64,000 nt of DNA from the sequence record MT446405.1. One strand, written 5' to 3'. Below the pieces are notes generated by a model. The model was not told where the DNA came from. It ran no database searches and saw only the letters and a list, made by a program, of their open reading frames with translations. This document shows, one piece after another, positions 34,104 to 49,095 of the stretch. Every line of letters starts with the position of its first letter. The first letter of the stretch is position 1. The position numbers were made by a program, and so were the translations under genes. The DNA is from Escherichia virus TH32.

Positions 34104-34430
34104 ATGAACGAAAAAGATACGAAGCAACGCGAACGTGCAACACACGTCGGCATCGTTGAGTCCTTCCTTAATACCCGAATGAACTCAAGCCTAACAATCA
34201 TGCGATTCCTGGGTCAACCAGACAGAATCAAATTTATTTTTGCCGCAAATCCGGTATCGCTGTACATCCCTGTTGAATCCATGGCGTACTTAGTGCGCGA
34301 CGAGAAAGGATGGAAGATACCAAACACAACTGTTTTCTTCAGCCATGTTGATGGTGAGATGTTTGAACGAAAAGAAGATTGCCATTTTATTCCAGTATAT
34401 CTGGACCTTGACAGCGTAGTGGAGTTATAA
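34104..34430 (+). CDS. hypothetical protein
   Basis: 108 aa. Confidence 0.4.
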   Translation: MNEKDTKQRERATHVGIVESFLNTRMNSSLTIMRFLGQPDRIKFIFAANPVSLYIPVESMAYLVRDEKGWKIPNTTVFFSHVDGEMFERKEDCHFIPVYLDLDSVVEL

Positions 34431-35614
34431 TGAACATTCCAGAATTTAATGATGAGCCAGTGATTCAGTTTAACGCGCAACAAATCGATGCCATCGAGAA
34501 GGCCGTTGCATGGTACAAGCGATTGCAGGACGGTAAAACGACGAAGCGTGTGTTTTTCATTGCTGGCTATGCAGGGACTGGTAAAACTTCTATTGCTCGC
34601 GAGATTGTGCGCCGCTGTGTCGGTGAGTACGGAGCTATCTATATTGCGCCGACCGGAAAGGCTGCAAGCCGATTAAAGCAAAAAGGCTGTCGTGGCGCTA
34701 AGACCCTTCACCAGTTCATCTATAACGTGCGCGGCGTAAATGACGACAATGAGCCAATCTTTTCGAGGAAGTCAAAGCTGGATGAAAGGCCGCACCTTGT
34801 TGTCCTCGATGAAGCGTCGATGGTTGGCGAGTGGGACACAGAGCGCCTTCTTGATCACCGCATCCCTGTGCTGGCATTAGGCGACATTGGACAAGTCCCT
34901 CCGGTAAAAGCCGCCGCCTACTTTACTGAAGATGCCGTTGACGTGCTGTTAACCGAAATCATGCGGCAAGGGAAAGAGTCCAATATAATCCGCGCCTCCT
35001 TCTTCGTGCGCCAAGGCAACCGCCTTCCTCCGCGTGAATACGATGACGTCAAAGTATTGGCAGAATCGCCGCGCGTTACTGCATTGAAGAAATTCATGGG
35101 CGAAGATGATCAAATTATTTGCTCCTATAATAGCACCAAAGATAAATGGAATTCATTATTACGGCAAGTGAGCGGACGTATAACGCCAATGCCAGGAATC
35201 GGCGAGAAAGTTATTTGCACCTTCAACCAGCACGGGCCAGGATTCTGTAATGGCGAGCAAGGGATTGTTATTAGCTATGAACCAGTGCCGGACTTTGAAA
35301 GGGATGAAGACGAGTCGAATGAAATAATGTATGTCAACTTGCGTTCATTAACTGATGGTAAAGATATAAAGGTGAAGATCAATCCTCTTTCCTTCTCTAC
35401 TGATCAGGAAGTGCGCAAAGAAGCGCAACGCGCTGTTGGCGGGATGGACTATGGCTATGTAATCACGGTGCACAAATCGCAAGGCAGCGAGTGGGACAAT
35501 GTGTGCGTGCTGGAAGAAATCTTGCGCGGCGTTCCGTACTCCAAGATGATGTACACCGCAATCACCCGCGCTAAGAAGAATCTGACCGTGTACCGTGATT
35601 TGAAAGCGCGTTAA
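34430..35614 (+). CDS. RecD/Dda-like superfamily 1 DNA helicase
   Basis: Walker A GYAGTGKTS, Walker B VVLDEASMV, motif VI VITVHKSQGSEWDNV. Confidence 0.85.
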   Translation: MNIPEFNDEPVIQFNAQQIDAIEKAVAWYKRLQDGKTTKRVFFIAGYAGTGKTSIAREIVRRCVGEYGAIYIAPTGKAASRLKQKGCRGAKTLHQFIYNVRGVNDDNEPIFSRKSKLDERPHLVVLDEASMVGEWDTERLLDHRIPVLALGDIGQVPPVKAAAYFTEDAVDVLLTEIMRQGKESNIIRASFFVRQGNRLPPREYDDVKVLAESPRVTALKKFMGEDDQIICSYNSTKDKWNSLLRQVSGRITPMPGIGEKVICTFNQHGPGFCNGEQGIVISYEPVPDFERDEDESNEIMYVNLRSLTDGKDIKVKINPLSFSTDQEVRKEAQRAVGGMDYGYVITVHKSQGSEWDNVCVLEEILRGVPYSKMMYTAITRAKKNLTVYRDLKAR

Positions 35615-35774
35615 TGTTGACGTAAATTTACGAAAAATAAAACTGAAAATCAGTTTAATTAAAGTGGCATTGCCGCCATAGTTTTTAGTTGCTACTGGCG
35701 GCGACTGAAGGCATAATTAAGTTATCCCAAACGGGGGAATATAAAATAAACTAATTTATTTAAGGACTGTGAAC

Positions 35775-36614
35775 ATGGCCGAAGCAATCAAAGTATTATC
35801 TAAAGAAGAAAAACAAGCAGCTGCAGCAGAACGTCGTCGCGTGGCTGAAGAGAAACGCCTGGCTAAAAAGAAAGAAGCCGAAGAAAAACGCCAGAAGCGT
35901 GAGCAGGAAAAACAAGCCAAGCGTGAAGAAGCTGCGCTGAAACGCAAGCAGGCTGCTGATGAGAAGGCTCAGAAGCGTGCTGAAGAAGCGGCTAAGAAAG
36001 CTAAAGAGCGTGCAGAAAAGGCTGCTGCTAAGAAAGCAGAGCGTGAAGCCGCTAAAGCAGCAAAAGAAATCGAAAAGGCAAAGGCTAAAGAAGAAGCCAA
36101 GCGCCTGAAAGCTGAACAAGCTGCTGCTAAGAAAGCAGAGCGTGATCAAGCCCGTGCTGCAGCGAAGGCCGAAAAAGAAAAGGCCAAAGAAGAAGCTAAA
36201 GCGAAACGCAAGGCAGAGCGTGAAGCTGCTAAGATTGCGGCGAAAGAAGCTGCAGAACAGCAGAAAGAACAGCGCAAGAAAGAAGCTGAAGAGCGTCGCA
36301 AAGCGATTGCAGAGCGTAAAGCCGCCAAGAAAGCTAACGGTCAGCGTCGCGCTAAAGCAACTCACTTTGTTTACACCGGAAACGGCCTGAGCCAGCCGCA
36401 AGAGCATTCCACCCGTGGACGCGTTCTGGCGGCGATCAAAGAAGGCGAAATCGGTCAGCCGCAGTCTATCGACGAGCTGGGTGAAAAAGTTAAAGATCAG
36501 CTGTTTGGCGCTTCCGTTCGCTCTTACCTGAGCAAGCTGGAAGAGATGGGCCACATCGAGTTCATCGATGTTGAATCCAATGACGATGCCGAAGACGGTG
36601 ATCAAGCGGAATAA
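35775..36614 (+). CDS. Lys/Ala/Glu-rich repeat protein with globular C-terminal domain
   Basis: About 190 aa of KEEAEEKRQKREQEKQAKREEAALKRKQ...-type low complexity, then a 90 aa non-repetitive tail; antisense ORF 35796..36605 judged an artefact. Confidence 0.6.
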   Translation: MAEAIKVLSKEEKQAAAAERRRVAEEKRLAKKKEAEEKRQKREQEKQAKREEAALKRKQAADEKAQKRAEEAAKKAKERAEKAAAKKAEREAAKAAKEIEKAKAKEEAKRLKAEQAAAKKAERDQARAAAKAEKEKAKEEAKAKRKAEREAAKIAAKEAAEQQKEQRKKEAEERRKAIAERKAAKKANGQRRAKATHFVYTGNGLSQPQEHSTRGRVLAAIKEGEIGQPQSIDELGEKVKDQLFGASVRSYLSKLEEMGHIEFIDVESNDDAEDGDQAE

Positions 36615-36642
36615 CCTGTAGGACGGTTATGTAGCGGTAATT

Positions 36643-36669
36643 GACCCACACTTGTTGTGGGTCTTTTTT
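36643..36669 (+). terminator. rho-independent terminator
   Basis: GACCCACA-cttgt-TGTGGGTC followed by TTTTTT. Confidence 0.7.
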
Positions 36670-36748
36670 CGTCTGTACTAAATAAAAATGACTTGTTGCT
36701 GTAAGATAATTTAGCTATTATACTTCTCATATCACCCACAAAGGACAA

Positions 36749-37744
36749 ATGAACATGAAACAACCTGTAATGATTATCGGCGGCGGACTGGCAGGACTTA
36801 TCACCGCTTGCCACTTCCCAAACTCCATTGTGTACGAAGCAGGGGAACGAGCGCCACAGCACAAGGCGCTACTACGCTTTCGCGGCGAAGAAGTAAGCCG
36901 TATTACCGGAATCCCTTTTAAGGCCGTGACAGTTGACAAGGCTGTGTATTTTCGCGGCAACTACTACCACGACCATTGCCCAATCAACCTTGCCAATATG
37001 TATTCCATGAAGGTCACCAATCAGTTTGGCAGCCGTTCAATCATGAAGCTTAAAACTGCAACGCGTTATATTGCGCCTGATGACTTTTATGATCAACTTG
37101 TCGATAAGCTTGGCGACCGTATATTCTTCAATACTCCGGTCGACACCCTCTGCGGCTATAGCGAGACGCCAATCATCAATACATCGCCGCTGCCCGTCAT
37201 GATGAAGCTTGCTGGTATTGATCAAAAGCTCGACTTCTCGTTTGATAAGGCAAATATACGCGTTTATCGTTTTAAGATTAAGCGCAAGTGTGAACTGTAT
37301 CAAACAATTTACTTCCCTGACTATTCTGTAAGGACTTACCGCGCATCAATTACTGGTGACACGCTGATTATCGAAACAATTCCATTGGTAAGCGTCAGCG
37401 CGGCAGCAGTTGAAGCCGCTGGCGGCATTACCCGTTATCGCGACATGAAGTTGCGTGCAGAAGTGGACGAAGTTCTGACCGCTTTTGGTCTTTCATGGAA
37501 TGACATCTCTTTGGAAGAAGTTGAAAAGGTTGACCAGAAGTATGGCAAGATTGTCGACATTCCTAAAGACTTGCGCCACGCCTTACTGCTCCAGCTGACC
37601 ATGGATTTGAACGTATTTAGTGTCGGTCGCTTTGCTACTTGGCGAAACATTTTGCTTGATGACGTTGCTCATGACCTTGTTGAAGTTGAAAAACTCATCA
37701 AAGCAAATAACTATCAAAAATTTGCTTATATTGCTAATAAATAA
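36749..37744 (+). CDS. FAD/NAD(P)-binding Rossmann-fold protein
   Basis: N-terminal VMIIGGGLAGLITA (GxGxxG dinucleotide-binding motif); 331 aa. Confidence 0.5.
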   Translation: MNMKQPVMIIGGGLAGLITACHFPNSIVYEAGERAPQHKALLRFRGEEVSRITGIPFKAVTVDKAVYFRGNYYHDHCPINLANMYSMKVTNQFGSRSIMKLKTATRYIAPDDFYDQLVDKLGDRIFFNTPVDTLCGYSETPIINTSPLPVMMKLAGIDQKLDFSFDKANIRVYRFKIKRKCELYQTIYFPDYSVRTYRASITGDTLIIETIPLVSVSAAAVEAAGGITRYRDMKLRAEVDEVLTAFGLSWNDISLEEVEKVDQKYGKIVDIPKDLRHALLLQLTMDLNVFSVGRFATWRNILLDDVAHDLVEVEKLIKANNYQKFAYIANK

Positions 37745-37745
37745 T

Positions 37746-37773
37746 TTGCTTTCTGCTTCAATGGGCGTATACT
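37746..37773 (+). promoter_or_regulatory. sigma70-like promoter with dyad symmetry around -10
   Basis: TTGCTT-N16-TATACT; 12 bp inverted repeat arms 37752-37763 / 37779-37790. Confidence 0.4.
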
Positions 37774-37809
37774 TTAATCATTGAAGCAGAACTCATAGAG
37801 GAAACGAAA

Positions 37810-38256
37810 ATGAAACGAATCACTGGAATCGCGCTTGCCGCGACTGCTATTCTCGGAACCATGTATATGGAAGCGACTGAAGCCGCTGTCCGTACTTCCG
37901 ATTCAATCGCCGTGTATGATTGCGAAGCGATGGACGGTAAAACCGCAGCAACCACTGGCGCAACTATCACAGCTTACATCGGCGTGAACGAGCAAGAAGG
38001 TTTGAACATTCAGATTCAAGGATTCACAGGGAAAGGTGCCAACCGTACTCCGTGGATGCAACGTTTCACTTTCGTTCAGCCTCGTTCAACTGGCGGCTTC
38101 ATCAACCTCATTGGTGAAAACCGTTCTGGTGCAGAAATCTTTACATCAATGAGTTCTAATGATGAACCAAAGAAAAGTTTTCAGTTGCTTTATAACGCAC
38201 AATTCGTTTATCATTGCACCTTCTCTGGTGATCAGCAACTAGTGAATTACCGTTAA
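37810..38256 (+). CDS. secreted/periplasmic protein (signal peptide)
   Basis: N-terminal MKRITGIALAATAILGT... signal-like sequence; AGAGGA RBS. Confidence 0.45.
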   Translation: MKRITGIALAATAILGTMYMEATEAAVRTSDSIAVYDCEAMDGKTAATTGATITAYIGVNEQEGLNIQIQGFTGKGANRTPWMQRFTFVQPRSTGGFINLIGENRSGAEIFTSMSSNDEPKKSFQLLYNAQFVYHCTFSGDQQLVNYR

Positions 38257-38269
38257 TAGGATAATTAAA

Positions 38270-39100
38270 ATGAAAGTTGAATTAATTCGATACACCCAAA
38301 ATGCACTTGACCTTTTGCTGGAAACAAAGAACACGCGCATGACTGGCAAGCCCGTCTCTGAGATGACAGAATCAGAGAAGCAAGAGCACTGGCGCTACAT
38401 GCTTGACACCATCAAGTCACCTTTCGACTTTGTTGACTATATCTTTGACATCACTGATGTATCAAAGAATATGACTCATCAAATGGTGCGCACACGAACA
38501 GGTGCATATCAAGAACGAACAAGCCGCGCTCAGGAGTCTTCTGCCTTTGATGCGATTCGTCCGAAGGCATTTTCACACCAAAATCCAGAGTTGATTGATC
38601 ACTGTGAAGCATTTGGAACTGATGAAGAGCAACAATCTTTACTTCAAAAGCAATACTTAGCAGAGAAGTGGGATGACGCAATGGCGACTATCGATGCTTT
38701 GTATCAAGAACTTCGCGCGGCTGGCGCAGAGATTCAAGATGCACGTGCCGTGTTGCCTTCTAATATGCAAACGCATATCATGGCAAAGTTCAACTTGCGC
38801 ACCCTGCAGCAAATGGCCTCTAACCGCTTGTGCACGCGCACTCAAGGCGAGTATCAAGAAGTATTCCGTGCAATGGTTGCGGAAGTCCTTAAGGTGCACC
38901 CGTGGGCTAATCCTTTACTACAGCCGCAGTGCATCGGTATGGGTAAGTGCGCATTTCCTCGTCACGGTAAGGCCCATTGCCCTTGGTATCGTGATTGGAT
39001 GGATACCACGGCACAGCAAGAAGAGTTGCGCATCCAGTTTTGGAGTGCAATGCCAATCACCAACAATCCAGTTGCTAAAGATGGAGTATCAAAAGGATGA
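38270..39100 (+). CDS. ThyX-like (flavin-dependent thymidylate synthase family) protein, divergent
   Basis: VRTRTGAYQERTSR aligns with the ThyX signature RHRxxSYNExSxR but with His replaced by Thr. Confidence 0.4.
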   Translation: MKVELIRYTQNALDLLLETKNTRMTGKPVSEMTESEKQEHWRYMLDTIKSPFDFVDYIFDITDVSKNMTHQMVRTRTGAYQERTSRAQESSAFDAIRPKAFSHQNPELIDHCEAFGTDEEQQSLLQKQYLAEKWDDAMATIDALYQELRAAGAEIQDARAVLPSNMQTHIMAKFNLRTLQQMASNRLCTRTQGEYQEVFRAMVAEVLKVHPWANPLLQPQCIGMGKCAFPRHGKAHCPWYRDWMDTTAQQEELRIQFWSAMPITNNPVAKDGVSKG

Positions 39101-39969
39101 GCATTAAAAACAGCGAAATCTTAAACGTATTCGACCTTGACGGAACGCTGTTTGATGACCGTTGGCGCTTAGACCGCATCAAGGTGGCAGGTCCGTTGTC
39201 AGACTATGATGACTATCACAGCGGTATTGGTTATGATCAGTTCTATCCTCACATTGCATCAGCAGTAGAGGCTGCATCTCTTCGCGGTGAGGCGGTTGAA
39301 TATTGGACTGCAAGACCAGAAAAATACAGACAAGTGACTTTTGAGCGTCTGGACAATGTTTTCCCTTTTGATGAATTTACAATCAAGATGAGAGACTCTG
39401 GCGACAAACGTCCATCAACTATTATGAAATCTGCATGGCTATCGCACGCTTTGCGGCACGGCGATTATCGAATCATCAATGTATTCGACGACCGACAAGA
39501 CGTACTCGCGCGGATGCAAGATGAAGCATTGTATTATAACTCCGTTGCTCAAAATAAAATCGCTTTTACATTTAATCTTTGCAAAGCAGGTGAAGTGGTG
39601 CAACAATTAGCAATTGATCCAAGCGCAACAGGGCAAGAAGATACTAAGGCTGTGGAAGTTGAACAATCTCCGGCAACTGCCGCCGATATTCTTGATGCGA
39701 TGGCCGCGACCTTCCGTGAGCGCAACGCCGTTTATGGCGATAACGCTGTGATGGTGGGCCAGGTGATGCAAGTTCTCTTCCCTAATGGCGTCACGTTGAA
39801 AACGCCGGAAGACTACCACATGTGGCACCTCTTCGAGCTTAAGATTGTCAAGCTTACACGCTTCGCAATCAGCGGCCTGAAGCACGAAGACTCTATACAC
39901 GATGATGGTGTTTACAGCGCCATGTGTGAACGTCTTGTGAACACCCATAATATTAATTTCAATAAATAG
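39097..39969 (+). CDS. HAD-superfamily phosphatase domain protein (nucleotidase candidate)
   Basis: Motif I VFDLDGTLFDD; motif IV-like INVFDDRQD; extra C-terminal domain of about 120 aa. Confidence 0.6.
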   Translation: MSIKNSEILNVFDLDGTLFDDRWRLDRIKVAGPLSDYDDYHSGIGYDQFYPHIASAVEAASLRGEAVEYWTARPEKYRQVTFERLDNVFPFDEFTIKMRDSGDKRPSTIMKSAWLSHALRHGDYRIINVFDDRQDVLARMQDEALYYNSVAQNKIAFTFNLCKAGEVVQQLAIDPSATGQEDTKAVEVEQSPATAADILDAMAATFRERNAVYGDNAVMVGQVMQVLFPNGVTLKTPEDYHMWHLFELKIVKLTRFAISGLKHEDSIHDDGVYSAMCERLVNTHNINFNK

Positions 39970-39970
39970 T

Positions 39971-39998
39971 TTACTTGTGCGTTTCGATGAGTTATATT
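39971..39998 (+). promoter_or_regulatory. sigma70-like promoter with dyad symmetry around -10
   Basis: TTACTT-N16-TATATT; inverted repeat arms 39980-39991 / 40002-40013; downstream TCATCGAAACGAA box. Confidence 0.4.
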
Positions 39999-40034
39999 TA
40001 TCTCATCGAAACGAAGTCCAAAAAGGATAAATAA

Positions 40035-40718
40035 ATGAAAAAGGTAATTGTTGTAACAGGTGCCAATTCCGGTCTTGGTAAATCTATTTTTGACACCCTT
40101 GGCGCTTACGGTCACGAAGTCGTCGGAATCGATTTAGAGAACGGCTATGACATTCGTAACGCAAAACAGATGAAAGAACTTCTTAGCGGTTACGACGTAG
40201 AAGGCTTGATCAACTGTGCTGGCGTAAACTCTAACAACTGGTTTGAAGACGTCGATTATGAAGAGTTTAATCGCGTTATGCATACTAACGCATTCTCTTT
40301 CGTCAACACAACACAGGCTGCGTTGAAAAGTCTTGTCGATAATAAAGGCTTTGTTATTAACATTGTCTCTAACGCCGCGCATATTCCTATGACGTCCAGT
40401 TTGTGCTATAATGCATCCAAGGCCGCTGCGCTTATGATCACTAAGCAGATGGCGCACGAGCTTACGCCTAAATACGGTATTACGGTATTCTCTATTAGTC
40501 CGAACAAGTTGCGCGGCACTGGCATGTCTAAACAGATTGAAGATGCTGTTTGTGCAACTCGCGGGTGGACCCCTGAGTATGCCGCTGAATACCAGAAAAA
40601 GGCATTGATGAACGGATTGGAGACTGAGCCGCAAGTAATTGCTGACTTCATTCGCCATATCTTAATTACGGGCGCATGGCGCTTTATGTCTGGTACTGAT
40701 ATTCCATTTGGGAAATAA
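40035..40718 (+). CDS. short-chain dehydrogenase/reductase (SDR)
   Basis: TGANSGLGKS cofactor motif, NAG-like segment, catalytic YNASK (YxxxK). Confidence 0.8.
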   Translation: MKKVIVVTGANSGLGKSIFDTLGAYGHEVVGIDLENGYDIRNAKQMKELLSGYDVEGLINCAGVNSNNWFEDVDYEEFNRVMHTNAFSFVNTTQAALKSLVDNKGFVINIVSNAAHIPMTSSLCYNASKAAALMITKQMAHELTPKYGITVFSISPNKLRGTGMSKQIEDAVCATRGWTPEYAAEYQKKALMNGLETEPQVIADFIRHILITGAWRFMSGTDIPFGK

Positions 40719-40721
40719 ATC

Positions 40722-40937
40722 ATGAACAAAGCCTGGTTAGCGGTGATTGGTCTGGTCCTTCTGGTTGTATTGGGATACACTATCAAATTTGAAGTTCCAA
40801 ATCCTGCTGAGCCTGACAAAAAGATTGTCGTTGAAGTACCAGGCGCGAAAGGGGAATTACCAAAACCTAAATTCGAAGTGGTAACGCCTGCGCCTGAAAA
40901 ACCGCAGGACTCTGATAACACCGTAATCAATAAGTGA
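40722..40937 (+). CDS. small membrane-anchored Pro-rich protein
   Basis: N-terminal TMD (AWLAVIGLVLLVVLGY) then Pro/Lys-rich tail. Confidence 0.4.
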   Translation: MNKAWLAVIGLVLLVVLGYTIKFEVPNPAEPDKKIVVEVPGAKGELPKPKFEVVTPAPEKPQDSDNTVINK

Positions 40938-41070
40938 GATTATGGAAGAAGAATTTAACATCCCTGGTCTGGATGAAGAAAAAGACTATGCTGCTGAAGT
41001 AGTCAGCAAAGAAGAAACTCATGAAGCCGACAACGTTTGCGGCGATGCTTGTAAAATCTAAGGAAACAAA

Positions 41071-41622
41071 ATGCCACATTTTAAAATTGAACAAATCGCC
41101 CTGTCAATTCCAGATGCTCAGCGCGCACAGGATTTCTTGGCTAAAATCGGCCTGACAGAATGGTTCCATGATCATGTTGTTGCTACTGGTCGCGTATTTG
41201 AAGCTGATGACTTTAAAGGTCGTCGCGACGATTGCACCAATGAAGCTGACTTGCGCTTCAACTATCAGGCTGGCAACGGTACTGATGGCAGAGCTGGTAA
41301 GCCTCTTGAGCTTGAAATCCTTGACTACACAATGGGCTGCAACTGGATTAACGAAAACATCGAATATATCGATGCGCATGACAATCAGGTCAGCCACCTT
41401 GGCATGCACGTGACTGCCGCTGAACTTGCTGAATGGCGTAAGTTCTTTAAAGAAGAAGGTATTCAGGTTGCACAGGAAGTTGTAACTGACTCTCATACCA
41501 ACCCGAACATTGCTGGTCAACGTCGTTACAACTATGTGATCTTTGATACGCGTGAAATCATCGGCGTTGATTTGAAGTTTATCGTGCGCTTGAATCAAGA
41601 CGGTACTCCGTACACCGTATAA
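41071..41622 (+). CDS. VOC/glyoxalase-like fold protein (putative)
   Basis: N-terminal IEQIALSIPDAQRAQDFLAKIGL resembles the first beta-alpha-beta unit of glyoxalase/bleomycin-resistance proteins; weak. Confidence 0.3.
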   Translation: MPHFKIEQIALSIPDAQRAQDFLAKIGLTEWFHDHVVATGRVFEADDFKGRRDDCTNEADLRFNYQAGNGTDGRAGKPLELEILDYTMGCNWINENIEYIDAHDNQVSHLGMHVTAAELAEWRKFFKEEGIQVAQEVVTDSHTNPNIAGQRRYNYVIFDTREIIGVDLKFIVRLNQDGTPYTV

Positions 41623-47383: not shown

Positions 47384-47631
47384 TGAGTAAAAAAGTTCTG
47401 TTAATTGGGCCGCGTAACTCCGGCAAGACTACCAGTGCAAATAAAATTGCCGAAGTCATGGGACTTGCAGAAATATTTGAGCTTGACGGATTCAAAGTGC
47501 CAAACGGTTATAAGTTGCGCGATGACGTTGATGCCCTGTTTATAGCATCAAAACTTCCTCGCGGAATCCGTCGAGAACATTTTGACATAGTCATTGAAAT
47601 TAATAAGGGGTACATAAATGTCAACTATTAA
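47383..47631 (+). CDS. small P-loop protein
   Basis: Walker A-like LLIGPRNSGKTT. Confidence 0.45.
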   Translation: MSKKVLLIGPRNSGKTTSANKIAEVMGLAEIFELDGFKVPNGYKLRDDVDALFIASKLPRGIRREHFDIVIEINKGYINVNY

Positions 47632-48175
47632 CTGGGAAGATGATCTGCCGCAAGTAGCTCCTGAAAGTATTCAAGAGCGCCTTGCGCGCTTAGTATCTGA
47701 ACTGGCAGAACGCCAAGAAGCTTTGACAGAGCTTGAAGATGAAGCTGATATGCAAAAGCAGCGCATCAGTGAAATCAAAACTGTTCTGCTTCCTGGCGTT
47801 ATGGATGAGCTTGGTGTGTCCGAAATCAAGCTTGAGGACAAGACCAAAATCAAGGTCGAGTCCAAGGTGAACGCTTCAATCAAGAAAGAAAACGAATTAA
47901 AAGTTTTCGATTGGCTTGTAAACAACGGTTACGGCGGCTTGATCAAGTCCAGCGTCACGGCTGAGTTCGGTCGCGAAGAAATTGAACAGGCGCAAGAGAT
48001 TGTTGCCGCGCTGCGTGAAGATGGTGTTGAAGCCACGTTGAAACAAGGCGTTCATTCTGCTACACTGAAGTCGTTTGTAAAAGAACAGCTGGAAGCAGGC
48101 AATCCAGTTAGTGAAGATATTAGCGTTTTTGAATACAAAGAAGCTAAAATAACCTTGCCTAAAAGCAAAAAGTAA
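47618..48175 (+). CDS. hypothetical acidic coiled-coil protein
   Basis: 185 aa, AAGGGG RBS. Confidence 0.45.
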   Translation: MSTINWEDDLPQVAPESIQERLARLVSELAERQEALTELEDEADMQKQRISEIKTVLLPGVMDELGVSEIKLEDKTKIKVESKVNASIKKENELKVFDWLVNNGYGGLIKSSVTAEFGREEIEQAQEIVAALREDGVEATLKQGVHSATLKSFVKEQLEAGNPVSEDISVFEYKEAKITLPKSKK

Positions 48176-48234: not shown

Positions 48235-49095
48235 ATGTCTAAGAAAGAAACTACCGAAGTTGCAGTGAAAAACACCCAGATGTCCGCTATGGCTGATTTT
48301 GTCGACATGACCGATTTTGGCGCTGGTTTTGAAGGTGCCGATGCCGATGCGTATGCCATTCCTTTTATCGTCGTCCTGCAGAAGATGTCTCCTATGGTCG
48401 ACGAAGATGATCCAAAACACGTTCCTGGCGCAAAAGCCGGAATGCTTTACAACACCGTTACTGGTGAGTTGTATGACGGTAAGAAAGGCGTGCAGATCAT
48501 CCCTTGCGCATTCAAACGCACCTTCATTCTTTGGGGCGGTCGCGAGTCCGACGATAAAGGCTTTAAAGGTGAATTTACCAAAGAGCACGTTGATGCAGAA
48601 GTCGCGGCAGGCCGCGCTGTTGAGATCAACGGTAAGGTATTCGTGCCTGACGAAAACGGCAAGGTGCACGAGAAGAAATCGCCTTACTACGCAGATACAC
48701 GCAACCACTTTGTGATTCTGTTGAACGAAGAAACTGGTGAATTTGGTAGCGCAATGCTGTCTCTGACTTCTTCCATGATCAAGCCGTCTCGCATGCTGAT
48801 GACCGCTCTGCAGCAGAAGAAAGTTCAGACTCCGCAGGGTCTGAAAACGCCGCCGACCTTTATGAACATCGTTCGCATGGGTACTGCATCCCAGTCCAAA
48901 GACGGCAACACATGGTCAGTTCTGAAGTTTGAGCTGGAAGGTCTGGTGCAGGACAAAGGTCTGTACGAAGTCGCCAAGGCATTCCACAACGACGTGGTTG
49001 GCGGCAACGTTAACATTGACCGCAGCAAGCAGGAAGAAGCAAGCGGTGCCGCTGGTCCTGTCAATGAAACTCCGACCGACGCAGAAGAGTTTTAA
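48235..49095 (+). CDS. single-stranded DNA-binding protein candidate (gp2.5-like)
   Basis: 286 aa ending in acidic tail with terminal aromatic residue (...ETPTDAEEF), located in replication block; inferred. Confidence 0.35.
   Translation: MSKKETTEVAVKNTQMSAMADFVDMTDFGAGFEGADADAYAIPFIVVLQKMSPMVDEDDPKHVPGAKAGMLYNTVTGELYDGKKGVQIIPCAFKRTFILWGGRESDDKGFKGEFTKEHVDAEVAAGRAVEINGKVFVPDENGKVHEKKSPYYADTRNHFVILLNEETGEFGSAMLSLTSSMIKPSRMLMTALQQKKVQTPQGLKTPPTFMNIVRMGTASQSKDGNTWSVLKFELEGLVQDKGLYEVAKAFHNDVVGGNVNIDRSKQEEASGAAGPVNETPTDAEEF

Follow-up and report, generated by a model that had tools for sequence, protein, structure and literature searches.

The window, a stretch of 64,000 nucleotides from Escherichia virus TH32 (MT446405.1), belongs to a Wifcevirus, an E. 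coli myovirus, and includes a gene for a protein with a very long lysine-, alanine- and glutamate-rich segment (Table 1). The listed open reading frame opens at a GTG at position 35769, but in all relatives the annotated start corresponds to the ATG at 35775; the record of phage Mansfield also places a ribosome-binding site at the equivalent position. As the first-pass annotation of the window had stated, the gene comes after that of a RecD-like helicase, from which it is separated by a 160-nt spacer, and a strong terminator lies at its 3′ side. The spacer (35615-35774) is 98-99% identical in phages Bas101 and Mansfield, compared with 94-95% for the coding sequence, and it includes a sigma-70-like sequence that, judged from its match to the consensus, may act as a promoter. 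The terminator consists of a hairpin with an 8-bp stem followed by a T-run, with a minimum free energy of -17.9 kcal/mol (z -4.6), and none of 200 shuffled sequences folded as stably. An equivalent terminator is annotated in Mansfield and XcP1 and is predicted 3′ of the "TolA" ORF of phiLCL12.

Table 1. Features of the locus. Positions are those of the window; residue numbers refer to the 279-aa protein.
Feature	Position	Strand	Remarks
Dda/RecD-like SF1B helicase, upstream neighbour	34430..35614	+	Pfam AAA_30 and UvrD_C_2; phrog_325
Candidate sigma-70-like promoter, TTGCTA-17 nt-CATAAT	35689..35717	+	consensus scan, 9/12 matches
Ribosome-binding site, AAGGA	35762..35766	+	8 nt 5′ of ATG 35775; read from sequence
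CDS, phrog_4765 member	35775..36614	+	279 aa plus stop; 31.2 kDa; pI 9.6
Antisense ORF, 269 aa	35796..36605	-	artefact
Predicted uninterrupted alpha-helix with hendecad basic stripe, residues 10-186	35802..36332	+	177 aa, about 26.5 nm; AF2, periodicity
Linker with conserved basic motif G-x-R-R-x-(K/R)-(A/S)-T-H, residues 187-196	36333..36362	+	alignments
Predicted winged-helix-like globular domain, residues 197-264	36363..36566	+	AF2 model
Predicted disordered acidic tail VESNDDAEDGDQAE, residues 265-279	36567..36611	+	pLDDT < 50; pI 4.05
Intrinsic terminator, GACCCACA-CTTGT-TGTGGGTC then TTTTTT	36643..36669	+	scan and fold
FAD-type Rossmann flavoprotein, downstream neighbour	36749..37744	+	phrog_4828, E 2.4e-148

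The antisense ORF that runs across the gene had been taken for an artefact of the repeats, and the comparison with other phages confirmed this. Its codons are aligned with those of the sense frame, in which only one TTA, CTA or TCA codon occurs, and its composition is dominated by phenylalanine (24%) and leucine (19%). Among Wifcevirus isolates 37-43 residues change in the antisense frame versus 5-7 in the sense frame, and in phage Mansfield the antisense ORF is broken by a stop codon. The alignment with the sense codons, the divergence and the Mansfield stop rule it out as a real gene.

Residues 11-190 of the protein include no proline and are 31% Ala, 24% Lys, 21% Glu, 11% Arg and 7% Gln (94% in sum), which agrees with the initial description of a segment rich in these five amino acids followed by a non-repetitive C-terminal part. 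The composition of residues 191-279 is ordinary, with Asp or Glu at nine of the last 18 positions. Within the segment, the 177-residue predicted helix is 59% charged, has a net charge of +27 and holds seven hydrophobic residues, which show no periodicity. The repeats had been called heptad-like, a description that had to be abandoned: neither charged nor hydrophobic residues have power at a period of 3.5 or 7, and a heptad coiled coil was rejected on these grounds. Instead, Lys and Arg recur with a period of 3.67-3.68, that is, 11/3 (a hendecad), with z values of 13-17 against shuffled sequences, and Asp and Glu are periodic in the opposite phase (z 8-10). Register positions 0, 3, 7 and 10 hold 43 of the 65 Lys and Arg residues and only two acidic ones, and the phase is coherent over the entire helix. 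Since Lys and Arg are phased every 11/3 residues, they should form a single, nearly straight basic stripe. With few exceptions among the divergent homologues analysed, the best Lys/Arg period was 3.66-3.71 (z 5-28); the helix sequences that conserve this phasing cannot be aligned with each other. The homologous helices are net positive in every case (+5 to +28), and the net charge of the whole proteins ranges from -7 to +17. Opposite-charge pairs at i/i+4 were marginally enriched (36 versus 28.3 +/- 4.1 in shuffles), those at i/i+3 numbered 35 versus 28.9 +/- 4.0, and the strongest enrichment was found at i/i+5 (41). The 3.67 periodicity was not found in the controls E. coli TolA domain II (z 0.1), HflK/C and alpha-synuclein. 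A helical barrel of the HflK/C type is unsupported by these controls. At the DNA level the repeats are imperfect only, including a 99-nt (33-aa) internal duplication, and a tandem DNA-repeat array was rejected for that reason.

Structural models were built with AF2 from a shallow alignment of 10 sequences. In these models the block-mean pLDDT of the helix is 83-96 at residues 11-140 and 69-82 towards residue 180. The linker, which reads RRAKATH in the window protein and in which R191 and R192 are near-invariant in the family alignments, is probably flexible, as suggested by its low pLDDT. The small globular C-terminal domain noticed in the first-pass annotation is predicted to have a fold of the wHTH superfamily, a three-helix bundle with a small beta-sheet (H1-S-H2-H3-S); the model runs strand, H1, strand, H2, H3, strand, with a core pLDDT of 86-89. 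H3 bears the most conserved motif of the family, VRSYLSKLEEMGH, and the invariant residues of the domain are G227, I232, L243, G245, R249, S250, L252, S253, K254, L255, E256 and M258. From their sequence, R249, S250, S253 and K254 of H3 together with the basic arm in the linker are compatible with a putative DNA contact. The tail is acidic and variable in length in most homologues examined, reaching about 45 aa in JG024. Searches with Foldseek against the PDB gave nothing significant for the winged-helix domain, and those against BFVD gave strong matches (E <= 1e-8) solely to "TolA protein" or "putative structural protein" annotations of the same family. The structural matches include the protein-binding winged helices of RPA32C, Scc1, ScpB and ORC2, as well as peptide-binding RiPP leader-peptide recognition domains such as that of McbB. 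The best match among H1 structures, the yeast H1 globular domain (1uss), was weak (TMq 0.35).

The protein matched the profile of phrog_4765, a family of unknown function, over residues 1-279 with an E value of 3.6e-84, and its C-terminal 94 aa alone did so at 1.8e-46. Sequence searches of Pfam (cut-off E <= 0.1), NCBIfam and the PDB, including curated H-NS-like and nucleoid-associated families, gave nothing significant. A word-indexed homology search recovered only 5-10 proteins, mostly fragments, and the family was therefore sized by an exhaustive HMM search. It comprises 44 clusters among 1.84 billion representatives, all from phages and metagenomes, and no relative turned up when 185,579 bacterial species genomes were scanned with a pattern. 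The family is a core gene of Wifcevirus, of Pbunavirus (Pseudomonas PB1-like phages) and of related phages. In two distant metagenomic relatives, P0043 and P0036, the N-terminus is not a K/A/E helix, and no match to P0043 was found in the plasmid or isolated-phage collections.

Several GenBank records label members of the family "TolA protein", as if they were TolA-like proteins spanning the cell envelope. The likeness is confined to the K/A/E-rich helical composition that the phage segment has in common with E. coli TolA domain II, and the public mis-annotation stems from this composition. A transmembrane anchor is missing: there are 14 hydrophobic residues among the first 200, and only M1, I5, V7 and L8 are N-terminal. 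The C-terminal domain of TolA (PF06519) is not matched, whereas the control, E. coli TolA itself, matches it at 2e-38. BLASTP against E. coli TolA gave an E value of 0.18 through low-complexity segments alone and, as seen above, TolA domain II does not share the Lys/Arg periodicity. These results refuted homology, and the probability that the label is right is negligible.

Codon usage suggests that the gene is probably among the most highly expressed in these phages. Its fraction of optimal codons (Fop) is 0.76, the highest of 66 ORFs, and that of the major head protein is 0.75; all of its Arg codons are CGT or CGC, and 90% of its Leu codons are CTG. The gene is under strong purifying selection. 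In the K/A/E part, 17 of 17 nucleotide differences from Bas101 and 21 of 22 from Mansfield fall at third codon positions. The doubt raised at the outset, that the region might not be translated in this frame, is dispelled by LC-MS/MS detection of peptides of a 96%-identical orthologue, gp83 of vB_Eco4M-7 and gp81 of ECML-117 (PMC7048862). In CsCl-purified particles of vB_Eco4M-7 this orthologue ranked seventh among 33 proteins, with seven peptides and a score of 1197.6, above the major capsid and portal proteins (PMC7048862). Seven is also the number of peptides of at least 7 aa that a complete digest yields.

Its recovery from purified particles could mean that the protein truly belongs inside the virion, packaged with the genome to neutralise or space the DNA and co-injected as a shield against nucleases. 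In JG024, SMP, XcP1 and other phages the orthologues carry the label "putative structural protein", and such a role could bear on the resistance of Wifcevirus phages to restriction-modification systems, for which the protection mechanism is not known (PMC11990801). For the list of virion proteins of Pbunavirus SCUT-S1 the DNA had been released with LiCl and digested with DNase; the orthologue is absent from this list, as would be expected of a DNA-bound passenger. However, the protein does not figure among the 19 gene products modelled in the cryo-EM structure of E217, as given in its abstract. The vB_Eco4M-7 preparation also contained abundant non-structural proteins, namely glyoxalase-like and Pam3_Gp34-like proteins, helicase and endolysin, and the signal of the ECML-117 orthologue was weak, with two peptides and a score of 3.2 (PMC7048862). 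Since other abundant non-structural proteins co-purified, detection by mass spectrometry tracks abundance. The gene is part of the replication module and not of the head module, and in the RefSeq entries of PB1 and 14-1 its product is called a "hypothetical protein". The idea of a T4-style N-terminal capsid-targeting sequence was rejected because the N-termini are not conserved, but vary freely among homologues. Moreover, restriction resistance is already explained by DNA hypermodification. We consider an internal virion protein distinctly unlikely.

Another possibility is a protein that assists capsid assembly in the manner of P22 gp8, with a charged helical rod and a C-terminal helix-turn-helix-type domain binding the coat protein. 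The elongated, highly charged, helical shape, the length of about 300 aa, the small C-terminal helical domain and the codon optimisation, level with that of the major head protein, are in keeping with such a scaffold. Nonetheless, the scaffold of Pbunavirus Pa193 has been assigned to gp24, which is encoded in the head module and stays inside the capsid at the five-fold vertices (PMC11456595). The gene described here is found inside the replication/nucleotide-metabolism module at every locus examined, and known scaffolds have nothing that corresponds to its predicted winged-helix fold and basic arm. A scaffolding role is very improbable.

The surroundings of the gene are well conserved. The helicase gene lies upstream in 33 of 33 loci with enough upstream sequence, and the flavoprotein gene lies downstream in 33 of 33 loci with enough downstream sequence. 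The gene order helicase, winged-helix gene, flavoprotein, ThyX, HAD-phosphatase and SDR is kept at all 33 loci with sufficient flanking sequence, and ThyX is nearby in most loci. The phrog_4828 flavoprotein was found by others to be UDP-galactopyranose-mutase-like by HHpred. Pbunavirus DNA carries hypermodified thymidine, and the pathway by which these phages make it has yet to be described (PMC12191111). The flavoprotein/ThyX module probably encodes this pathway. A Snf2/Ino80-like translocase is also encoded by these phages (PMC12390725).

Given this synteny, the protein might serve the thymidine-hypermodification or replication machinery as an adaptor or scaffold. The partner of the winged helix would then be the flavoprotein or the Dda-like helicase and not DNA, and the charged rod would be a spacer, or a platform for assembly, by which enzymes are concentrated on nascent DNA. 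The constant adjacency of the flavoprotein gene and the proximity of ThyX point in this direction. In the loci of P0043 and P0036 (L009 and L013), whose flavoproteins are 40-46% identical to that of the window, the start of the flavoprotein gene overlaps the stop of the winged-helix gene (ATGA), which suggests co-translation. Furthermore, the winged-helix domain is not basic, and its structural neighbours RPA32C, Scc1, ScpB and McbB bind proteins or peptides. On the other hand, in most loci of the PB1-like group the two genes are 117-231 nt apart (more than 660 nt in two), and they are separated by a strong terminator in the window and by annotated or predicted terminators in three relatives. 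The codon optimisation of the flavoprotein gene is sharply different from that of the winged-helix gene, which argues against a 1:1 stoichiometry with the enzyme. In Rhizobium phage Y65, where the flavoprotein and ThyX are both present, no homologue of the winged-helix protein was found within 5 kb of them, and an obligatory linkage of the two genes was rejected on this evidence. In addition, synteny within a single phage lineage may be mere common descent. An adaptor function is unlikely, although it deserves to be kept in mind.

The reading that we prefer, to which we would give a probability of about 40%, is that the product of the gene is an architectural protein, made in abundance, whose task is to bind phage DNA and organise it. 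This reading builds on the translation of the gene, the purifying selection on it, the predicted domain architecture, the conserved phasing of charges, the codon optimisation and the synteny; from these we infer the DNA binding and the roles of the stripe, of the tail and in packaging. According to this proposal, the C-terminal winged helix and the conserved basic arm (RRxKATH) would anchor the protein on DNA. The helix would be a rigid 26-nm rod with its Lys/Arg stripe lying along DNA duplexes or bridging them, and its opposite Glu/Ala face would be exposed to the solvent or paired with neighbouring rods. The short acidic tail may compete with DNA for the basic surfaces or recruit partner proteins. 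With its own putative promoter and terminator, the gene could be expressed at levels like those of capsid proteins from inside the replication/thymidine-hypermodification module. Such high-level production within this module would mean that the protein may organise or mark new (modified) phage DNA, and a fraction of it may enter the capsids along with the DNA.

The first-pass annotation had compared the composition with that of histone H1 or nucleoid-associated tails and had suggested a protein that coats DNA or sequesters host factors. None of the present findings bears on sequestration. Part of the DNA-coating suggestion stands, as the predicted winged helix belongs to the fold class of the H1 globular domain, and the basic stripe, the net charge of the helix, the location in the replication/modification module and the very high codon optimisation are in line with DNA coating. 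The closer resemblance to H1 does not: the segment is 21% Glu, the predicted helix is rigid, Linker_histone is not matched, the best structural match is weak, and the charge of the homologues extends to negative values. Other points count against the preferred reading. With a pI of 7.1, the winged-helix domain has no net charge, and winged helices also bind proteins or peptides. A straight alpha-helix cannot follow the DNA groove. The evidence for association with the virion is weak, and the alignment behind the structural models is shallow.

A bolder form of the preferred reading would make the protein the founding component of a phage "chromatin". Its helix would be an inside-out hendecad, the basic stripe taking the place of the hydrophobic core of coiled coils. 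The stripe would zipper along or between sugar-hypermodified duplexes, the winged helix would read modified thymidine in a TG context, and the coat would be packaged and injected, shielding the genome from nucleases, and be remodelled during replication by the Snf2/Ino80-like translocase. This is speculative, and we would give it little credence.

Several known systems share part of the architecture. KfrA of the IncP-1 and IncU plasmids oligomerises and forms DNA-dependent filaments (PMC7821693, PMC7783346). Like the phage protein, it combines a small helix-turn-helix-type head with a very long, almost 100% alpha-helical tail rich in Ala and charged residues, the sequence of the tail is little conserved while the architecture is kept, and the genes reside on mobile elements. 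However, the head of KfrA is N-terminal and the phage winged helix is C-terminal, and the Pfam search of the phage protein gave no match to KfrA_N (PF11740). The KfrA tail is a heptad dimeric coiled coil with a hydrophobic core, whereas the phage helix phases Lys and Arg at 11/3, and KfrA, an autoregulator and accessory of partition, is of low abundance, in contrast to a gene optimised for capsid-level expression. H1/H5 and the bacterial H1-like proteins share the winged-helix globular domain, the long Lys/Ala-rich extension and the abundance. Their tails differ in being disordered, rich in Lys, Ala, Pro and Ser and almost devoid of acidic residues, and the Pfam search of the phage protein did not match Linker_histone (PF00538).

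Other similarities concern the helix. The single alpha-helices of the ER/K type (myosin VI/X, caldesmon) are also long and isolated, with about 60% charged residues, Ala and Gln, and few hydrophobic residues, but their stability comes from closely set Glu-Lys pairs at i/i+4, with charge on every side, while the phage helix gathers its like charges into one basic stripe and one acidic/Ala face, which is atypical of this class. The 11/3 periodicity is shared with hendecad helices such as right-handed coiled coils, group 3 LEA proteins and helices of the apolipoprotein type, and, judging from the register, the Lys/Arg positions 0, 3, 7 and 10 of the phage helix are spaced cyclically like an a/d/e/h core. 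The stripe of those proteins is hydrophobic and causes them to bundle or to bind lipid, whereas in the phage protein it is made of Lys and Arg and the hydrophobic a/d/e/h core is absent. As the stripe is basic, the helix would not be expected to self-associate without a polyanion. We know of no described precedent for a basic hendecad stripe. With regard to function, TF1 of phage SPO1 is an abundant architectural protein of the HU type that prefers hydroxymethyluracil DNA. The two cases would be analogous in that an abundant architectural protein, here presumed to bind DNA, occurs in a phage with replaced or modified thymine; they differ in that TF1 has an HU fold instead of a winged helix plus a rod.

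A search of the literature found no discussion of the function of this protein, and the family has spread through the databases as "TolA" or "structural protein" without an assigned function. Should the protein prove to be no more than an abundant DNA binder of a general kind, what is gained in practice is a corrected annotation. The phages that carry the family include the PB1-like phages, which are widely used for Pseudomonas phage therapy. An 11/3 basic stripe on a single 26-nm helix is a motif that, to our knowledge, fits no described class, and if its purpose is to bind DNA, it would represent a new mode by which an alpha-helix engages DNA. The position of the gene beside the probable thymidine-hypermodification genes bears on how hypermodified DNA is handled, protected and packaged, and also on the restriction resistance of Wifcevirus phages.

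The gene under study encodes a 279-amino acid product (31.2 kDa, pI 9.6). AAGGA lies 8 nt ahead of its ATG, and the same start is found in all annotated relatives. The region 34400-37800 shares 93-97% DNA identity with about 28 Wifcevirus myoviruses of E. coli and Shigella, including TH35, vB_EcoM_WFC, vB_Eco4M-7, ECML-117, Mansfield and the BASEL phages Bas98-101. Database records label the gene "hypothetical protein" or "TolA protein", and "putative structural protein" in remoter relatives. The first-pass annotation described a K/A/E-rich repeat and a nonrepetitive C-terminal part, located between a helicase and a terminator. Both flanking elements are present, and the composition agrees: residues 11-190 contain 31% A, 24% K, 21% E, 11% R and 7% Q, while residues 191-279 have an ordinary composition with an acidic tail at the end.

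In the K/A/E part, nucleotide differences fall at third codon positions in 17/17 cases with respect to Bas101 and 21/22 with respect to Mansfield, and only 5-7 amino acids change in the whole protein. This pattern points to strong purifying selection on the sense frame. The antisense ORF across the gene, which is codon-aligned with the sense frame, has changed at 37-43 residues between these phages and is interrupted by a stop in Mansfield. Its existence is due solely to the rarity of TTA/CTA/TCA codons in the sense frame, which has just one, and it is, as previously proposed, an artefact. Real antisense genes do exist nearby, though not across this ORF; the anti-defense gene DadIII-1 of Pbunavirus relatives is antisense to the gene adjoining the Dda-like helicase (PMC12390725). 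Concerns that the sense frame might not be translated were dispelled by LC-MS/MS detection of the orthologues from vB_Eco4M-7 (gp83, "TolA protein", 31.1 kDa; 7 peptides, 25.8% coverage, score 1197.6) and ECML-117 (2 peptides) (PMC7048862). When digestion of the window protein by trypsin is computed to completion, exactly 7 peptides reach a length of 7 residues or more, and coverage can be no higher than 32.6%. Therefore, detection in vB_Eco4M-7 was near saturation.

The structure of the full protein was predicted with AlphaFold2 using a shallow alignment of 10 sequences, and its strand pairing and electrostatics hold at the level of a model. Residues 10-186 are predicted to form an uninterrupted helix of 177 amino acids (~26.5 nm), with block-mean pLDDT values of 83-96 over residues 11-140 that drop to 69-82 nearer its C-terminus. 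The helix is followed by a linker predicted with low confidence (187-196), a compact domain (197-264) and a disordered tail (265-279). The protein matched phrog_4765 (E 3.6e-84) and had no match in Pfam, NCBIfam or PDB sequences. Searching with the C-terminal domain (tblastn) identified 356 phage records, 293 from Pseudomonas (Pbunavirus/PB1-like, ~52% identity), 26 from Escherichia and others from Serratia, Burkholderia, Xanthomonas, Pantoea, Aeromonas and Salmonella phages. Only 44 clusters emerged when 1.84 billion representatives were searched exhaustively with an HMM, and no relative was found when 185,579 bacterial species genomes were scanned with a pattern. Homologues occur in related phages, where the first-pass annotation suggested looking for them and for length variation. 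Their length is constant inside genera (279 amino acids for the Wifcevirus isolates covered and 294-296 for Pbunavirus) and ranges from 177 to 354 between genera. A few weak relatives (P0036, P0038, P0040-45) keep the winged-helix domain, with the K/A/E helix replaced by an unrelated N-terminal domain of ~100 amino acids. Burkholderia-type homologues (locus L006 3416-4297; proteins P0013, P0014, P0018) have His-rich N-termini, e.g., MSHSHHDHHHEH, that the window protein lacks and that may bind metal.

The architecture, a winged helix joined to a long helical extension, is of an already known kind. The nearest analogue is the plasmid KfrA family, which combines a helix-turn-helix head with a long Ala-rich helical tail and forms DNA-dependent filaments (PMC7821693). 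However, the domain order is reversed, the KfrA coiled coil is heptad-based and hydrophobic while the window helix is not, and the two proteins have no sequence relationship. The resemblance to histone H1 noted earlier extends to fold class and Lys/Ala richness but to nothing else.

Fourier analysis of the helix showed a very sharp K/R peak at 3.67 (11/3) residues (z 16.8 versus composition-matched shuffles) and a D/E peak that coincides with it in period (z 8.9) but is opposite in phase. There was no signal at 3.5, 3.6 or 7, so the repeat is hendecad rather than "heptad-like" as first described. In the 11-residue register, positions 0, 3, 7 and 10 account for 43/65 K/R but for just 2 acidic residues, 28/40 D/E lie at positions 2, 5, 8 and 9, and the phase is coherent along the entire helix. 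The basic residues appear to take the places that the a/d/e/h core has in hendecad coiled coils, with the same cyclic 3-4-3-1 spacing; the seven hydrophobic residues showed no periodicity. Opposite charges at i/i+4 were marginally enriched (36 versus 28 +/- 4), so the helix is similar in composition to ER/K single alpha-helices, whereas its charge pattern differs from theirs. To our knowledge, such a charge-phased helix is unusual and has not been described. The K/A/E segments of JG024, SMP, Gekk3-15, WTB, XcP1, metagenomic proteins and IMG/VR loci cannot be aligned and range from ~80 to 208 residues. Nonetheless, K/R phasing is conserved: nearly all have a best period of 3.66-3.71 (z 5 to 28), the clearest exceptions being L042-L044 (z ~3) and P0039/L022 (3.55), and net charge is positive in all (+5 to +28). 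The controls E. coli TolA domain II, HflK, HflC and alpha-synuclein showed no comparable K/R periodicity. A TolA-like reading was refuted by this result for TolA and the lack of a Pfam match.

Two pairs of imperfect direct repeats, each exactly 99 nt apart (87-91% identity), show that a unit of 33 residues (three hendecads) has been duplicated inside the helix. A different phage family has this same K/A/E helix with a hendecad K/R stripe (L021 2176-2721; P0037, phrog_18634; period 3.68, z ~13-15), fused to an unrelated small C-terminal domain. The striped helix may be a reusable module.

The Fop of the gene (E. coli-optimal codons), 0.76, is the highest of 66 nonoverlapping window ORFs (major head protein 0.75, median 0.52). 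All its Arg codons are CGT/CGC, and 90% of Leu codons are CTG, compared with 20% elsewhere in the phage. The 160-nt upstream spacer includes a promoter-like site, TTGCTA-17-CATAAT. Between isolates, identity in the spacer is 98-99%, compared with 94-95% in the coding sequences, which suggests that a promoter or 5' leader here is under constraint. Annotation or prediction places terminators 3' of the Mansfield, XcP1 and phiLCL12 orthologues. Taken together, codon optimization, spacer and terminators point to a monocistronic unit probably expressed at structural-protein levels. The vB_Eco4M-7 orthologue was detected in CsCl-purified phage, and this, with the "structural protein" labels, would fit true packaging in the virion. 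However, the same preparation also held glyoxalase-like, Pam3_Gp34-like and DUF7307 proteins (PMC7048862). The window's counterparts, exactly its other codon-optimized nonstructural genes, have masses that fit the 'unknown' and 'glyoxalase' proteins reported; these are either abundant contaminants or a packaged nonstructural set, and detection may reflect no more than abundance. The winged-helix protein was also absent from SCUT-S1 virion proteins after DNA removal and is not one of the 19 products modelled in the E217 structure. Packaging is improbable, and a scaffold-like protein is unlikely as well.

The order Dda-like helicase, gene under study, flavoprotein, ThyX was found in 33/33 loci with enough flanking sequence, from at least six genera. 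A HAD-type phosphatase, SDR reductase, glyoxalase-like protein, exonuclease and DNA polymerase lie further downstream.

Features of the window in and around the winged-helix gene
Feature	Coordinates	Remarks
Helicase	34430-35614	AAA_30 + UvrD_C_2; phrog_325, Dda-like
Upstream spacer	35615-35774	
Gene under study	35775-36614 (+)	
Antisense ORF	35796-36605	
Direct repeat, first pair	36012-36046 / 36111-36145	
Direct repeat, second pair	36071-36100 / 36170-36199	
Terminator	36643-36669	-17.9 kcal/mol, z -4.6
UGM-like flavoprotein	36749-37744	phrog_4828; N-terminal GGGLAGL Rossmann motif
148-aa ORF	37810-38256	starts with signal-peptide-like segment MKRITGIALAATAILG
ThyX-like gene	38270-39100	79.5 bits vs TIGR02170 (curated cut-off 87.9)
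HAD/PNKP-type phosphatase	39097-39969	
SDR/epimerase-like reductase	40035-40718	
Glyoxalase-like protein	41071-41622	20.9 kDa; nonstructural, high codon optimization
DUF7307	47618-48175	20.7 kDa; nonstructural, high codon optimization
Pam3_Gp34-like	48235-49095	31.2 kDa; nonstructural, high codon optimization

The flavoprotein had no match in Pfam, NCBIfam or PDB sequences, and the 148-amino acid ORF had none in PHROG, Pfam or NCBIfam. The ThyX-like protein is divergent, and instead of a plain thymidylate synthase it might be an enzyme of the dUMP hydroxymethylase type. In Pbunavirus DNA, ~1/4 of T positions, in TG context, are occupied by a sugar-type hypermodified thymidine whose biosynthetic genes are unidentified (2025 preprint, PMC12191111), and Wifcevirus phages resist restriction systems by a mechanism not known (PMC11990801). 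Judging from gene content, the genes at 36749-41622 are the obvious candidate for a sugar-type thymidine-hypermodification pathway. The flavoprotein was found in 361 phage records; these nearly coincide with those of the winged-helix family, with Rhizobium and Vibrio phages in addition. In two metagenomic loci (L009 972-2437, L013 2130-3079), a DUF932 gene precedes a winged-helix relative with the alternative N-terminal domain that overlaps, and is probably translationally coupled to, the start of a flavoprotein 40-46% identical to that of the window; ThyX is close by in one of the two. These relatives had no match among isolated phages or plasmids. Their pairing with the flavoprotein implies that this association predates the K/A/E helix, but it is not obligatory, since Rhizobium phage Y65 has flavoprotein and ThyX with no winged-helix homologue nearby. 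As a less likely alternative to a DNA anchor, the winged helix could be a protein-interaction module connecting the rod with either the flavoprotein or the helicase. Pbunavirus relatives also encode a 'helicase' with a predicted structure like Snf2/Ino80-type chromatin remodelers (PMC12390725).

The best-supported reading, to which we assign a probability of roughly 0.4, is an abundant architectural protein putatively associated with DNA. Acidic tails are found in SSB, T4 gp32 and HMGB1, and by analogy that of the window protein may be autoinhibitory or recruit partners. As a DNA-associated architectural protein, it would be anchored by the winged helix and the basic arm, the RRxKATH linker, and the basic-striped rod would act as a long-range DNA-contacting or bridging element.
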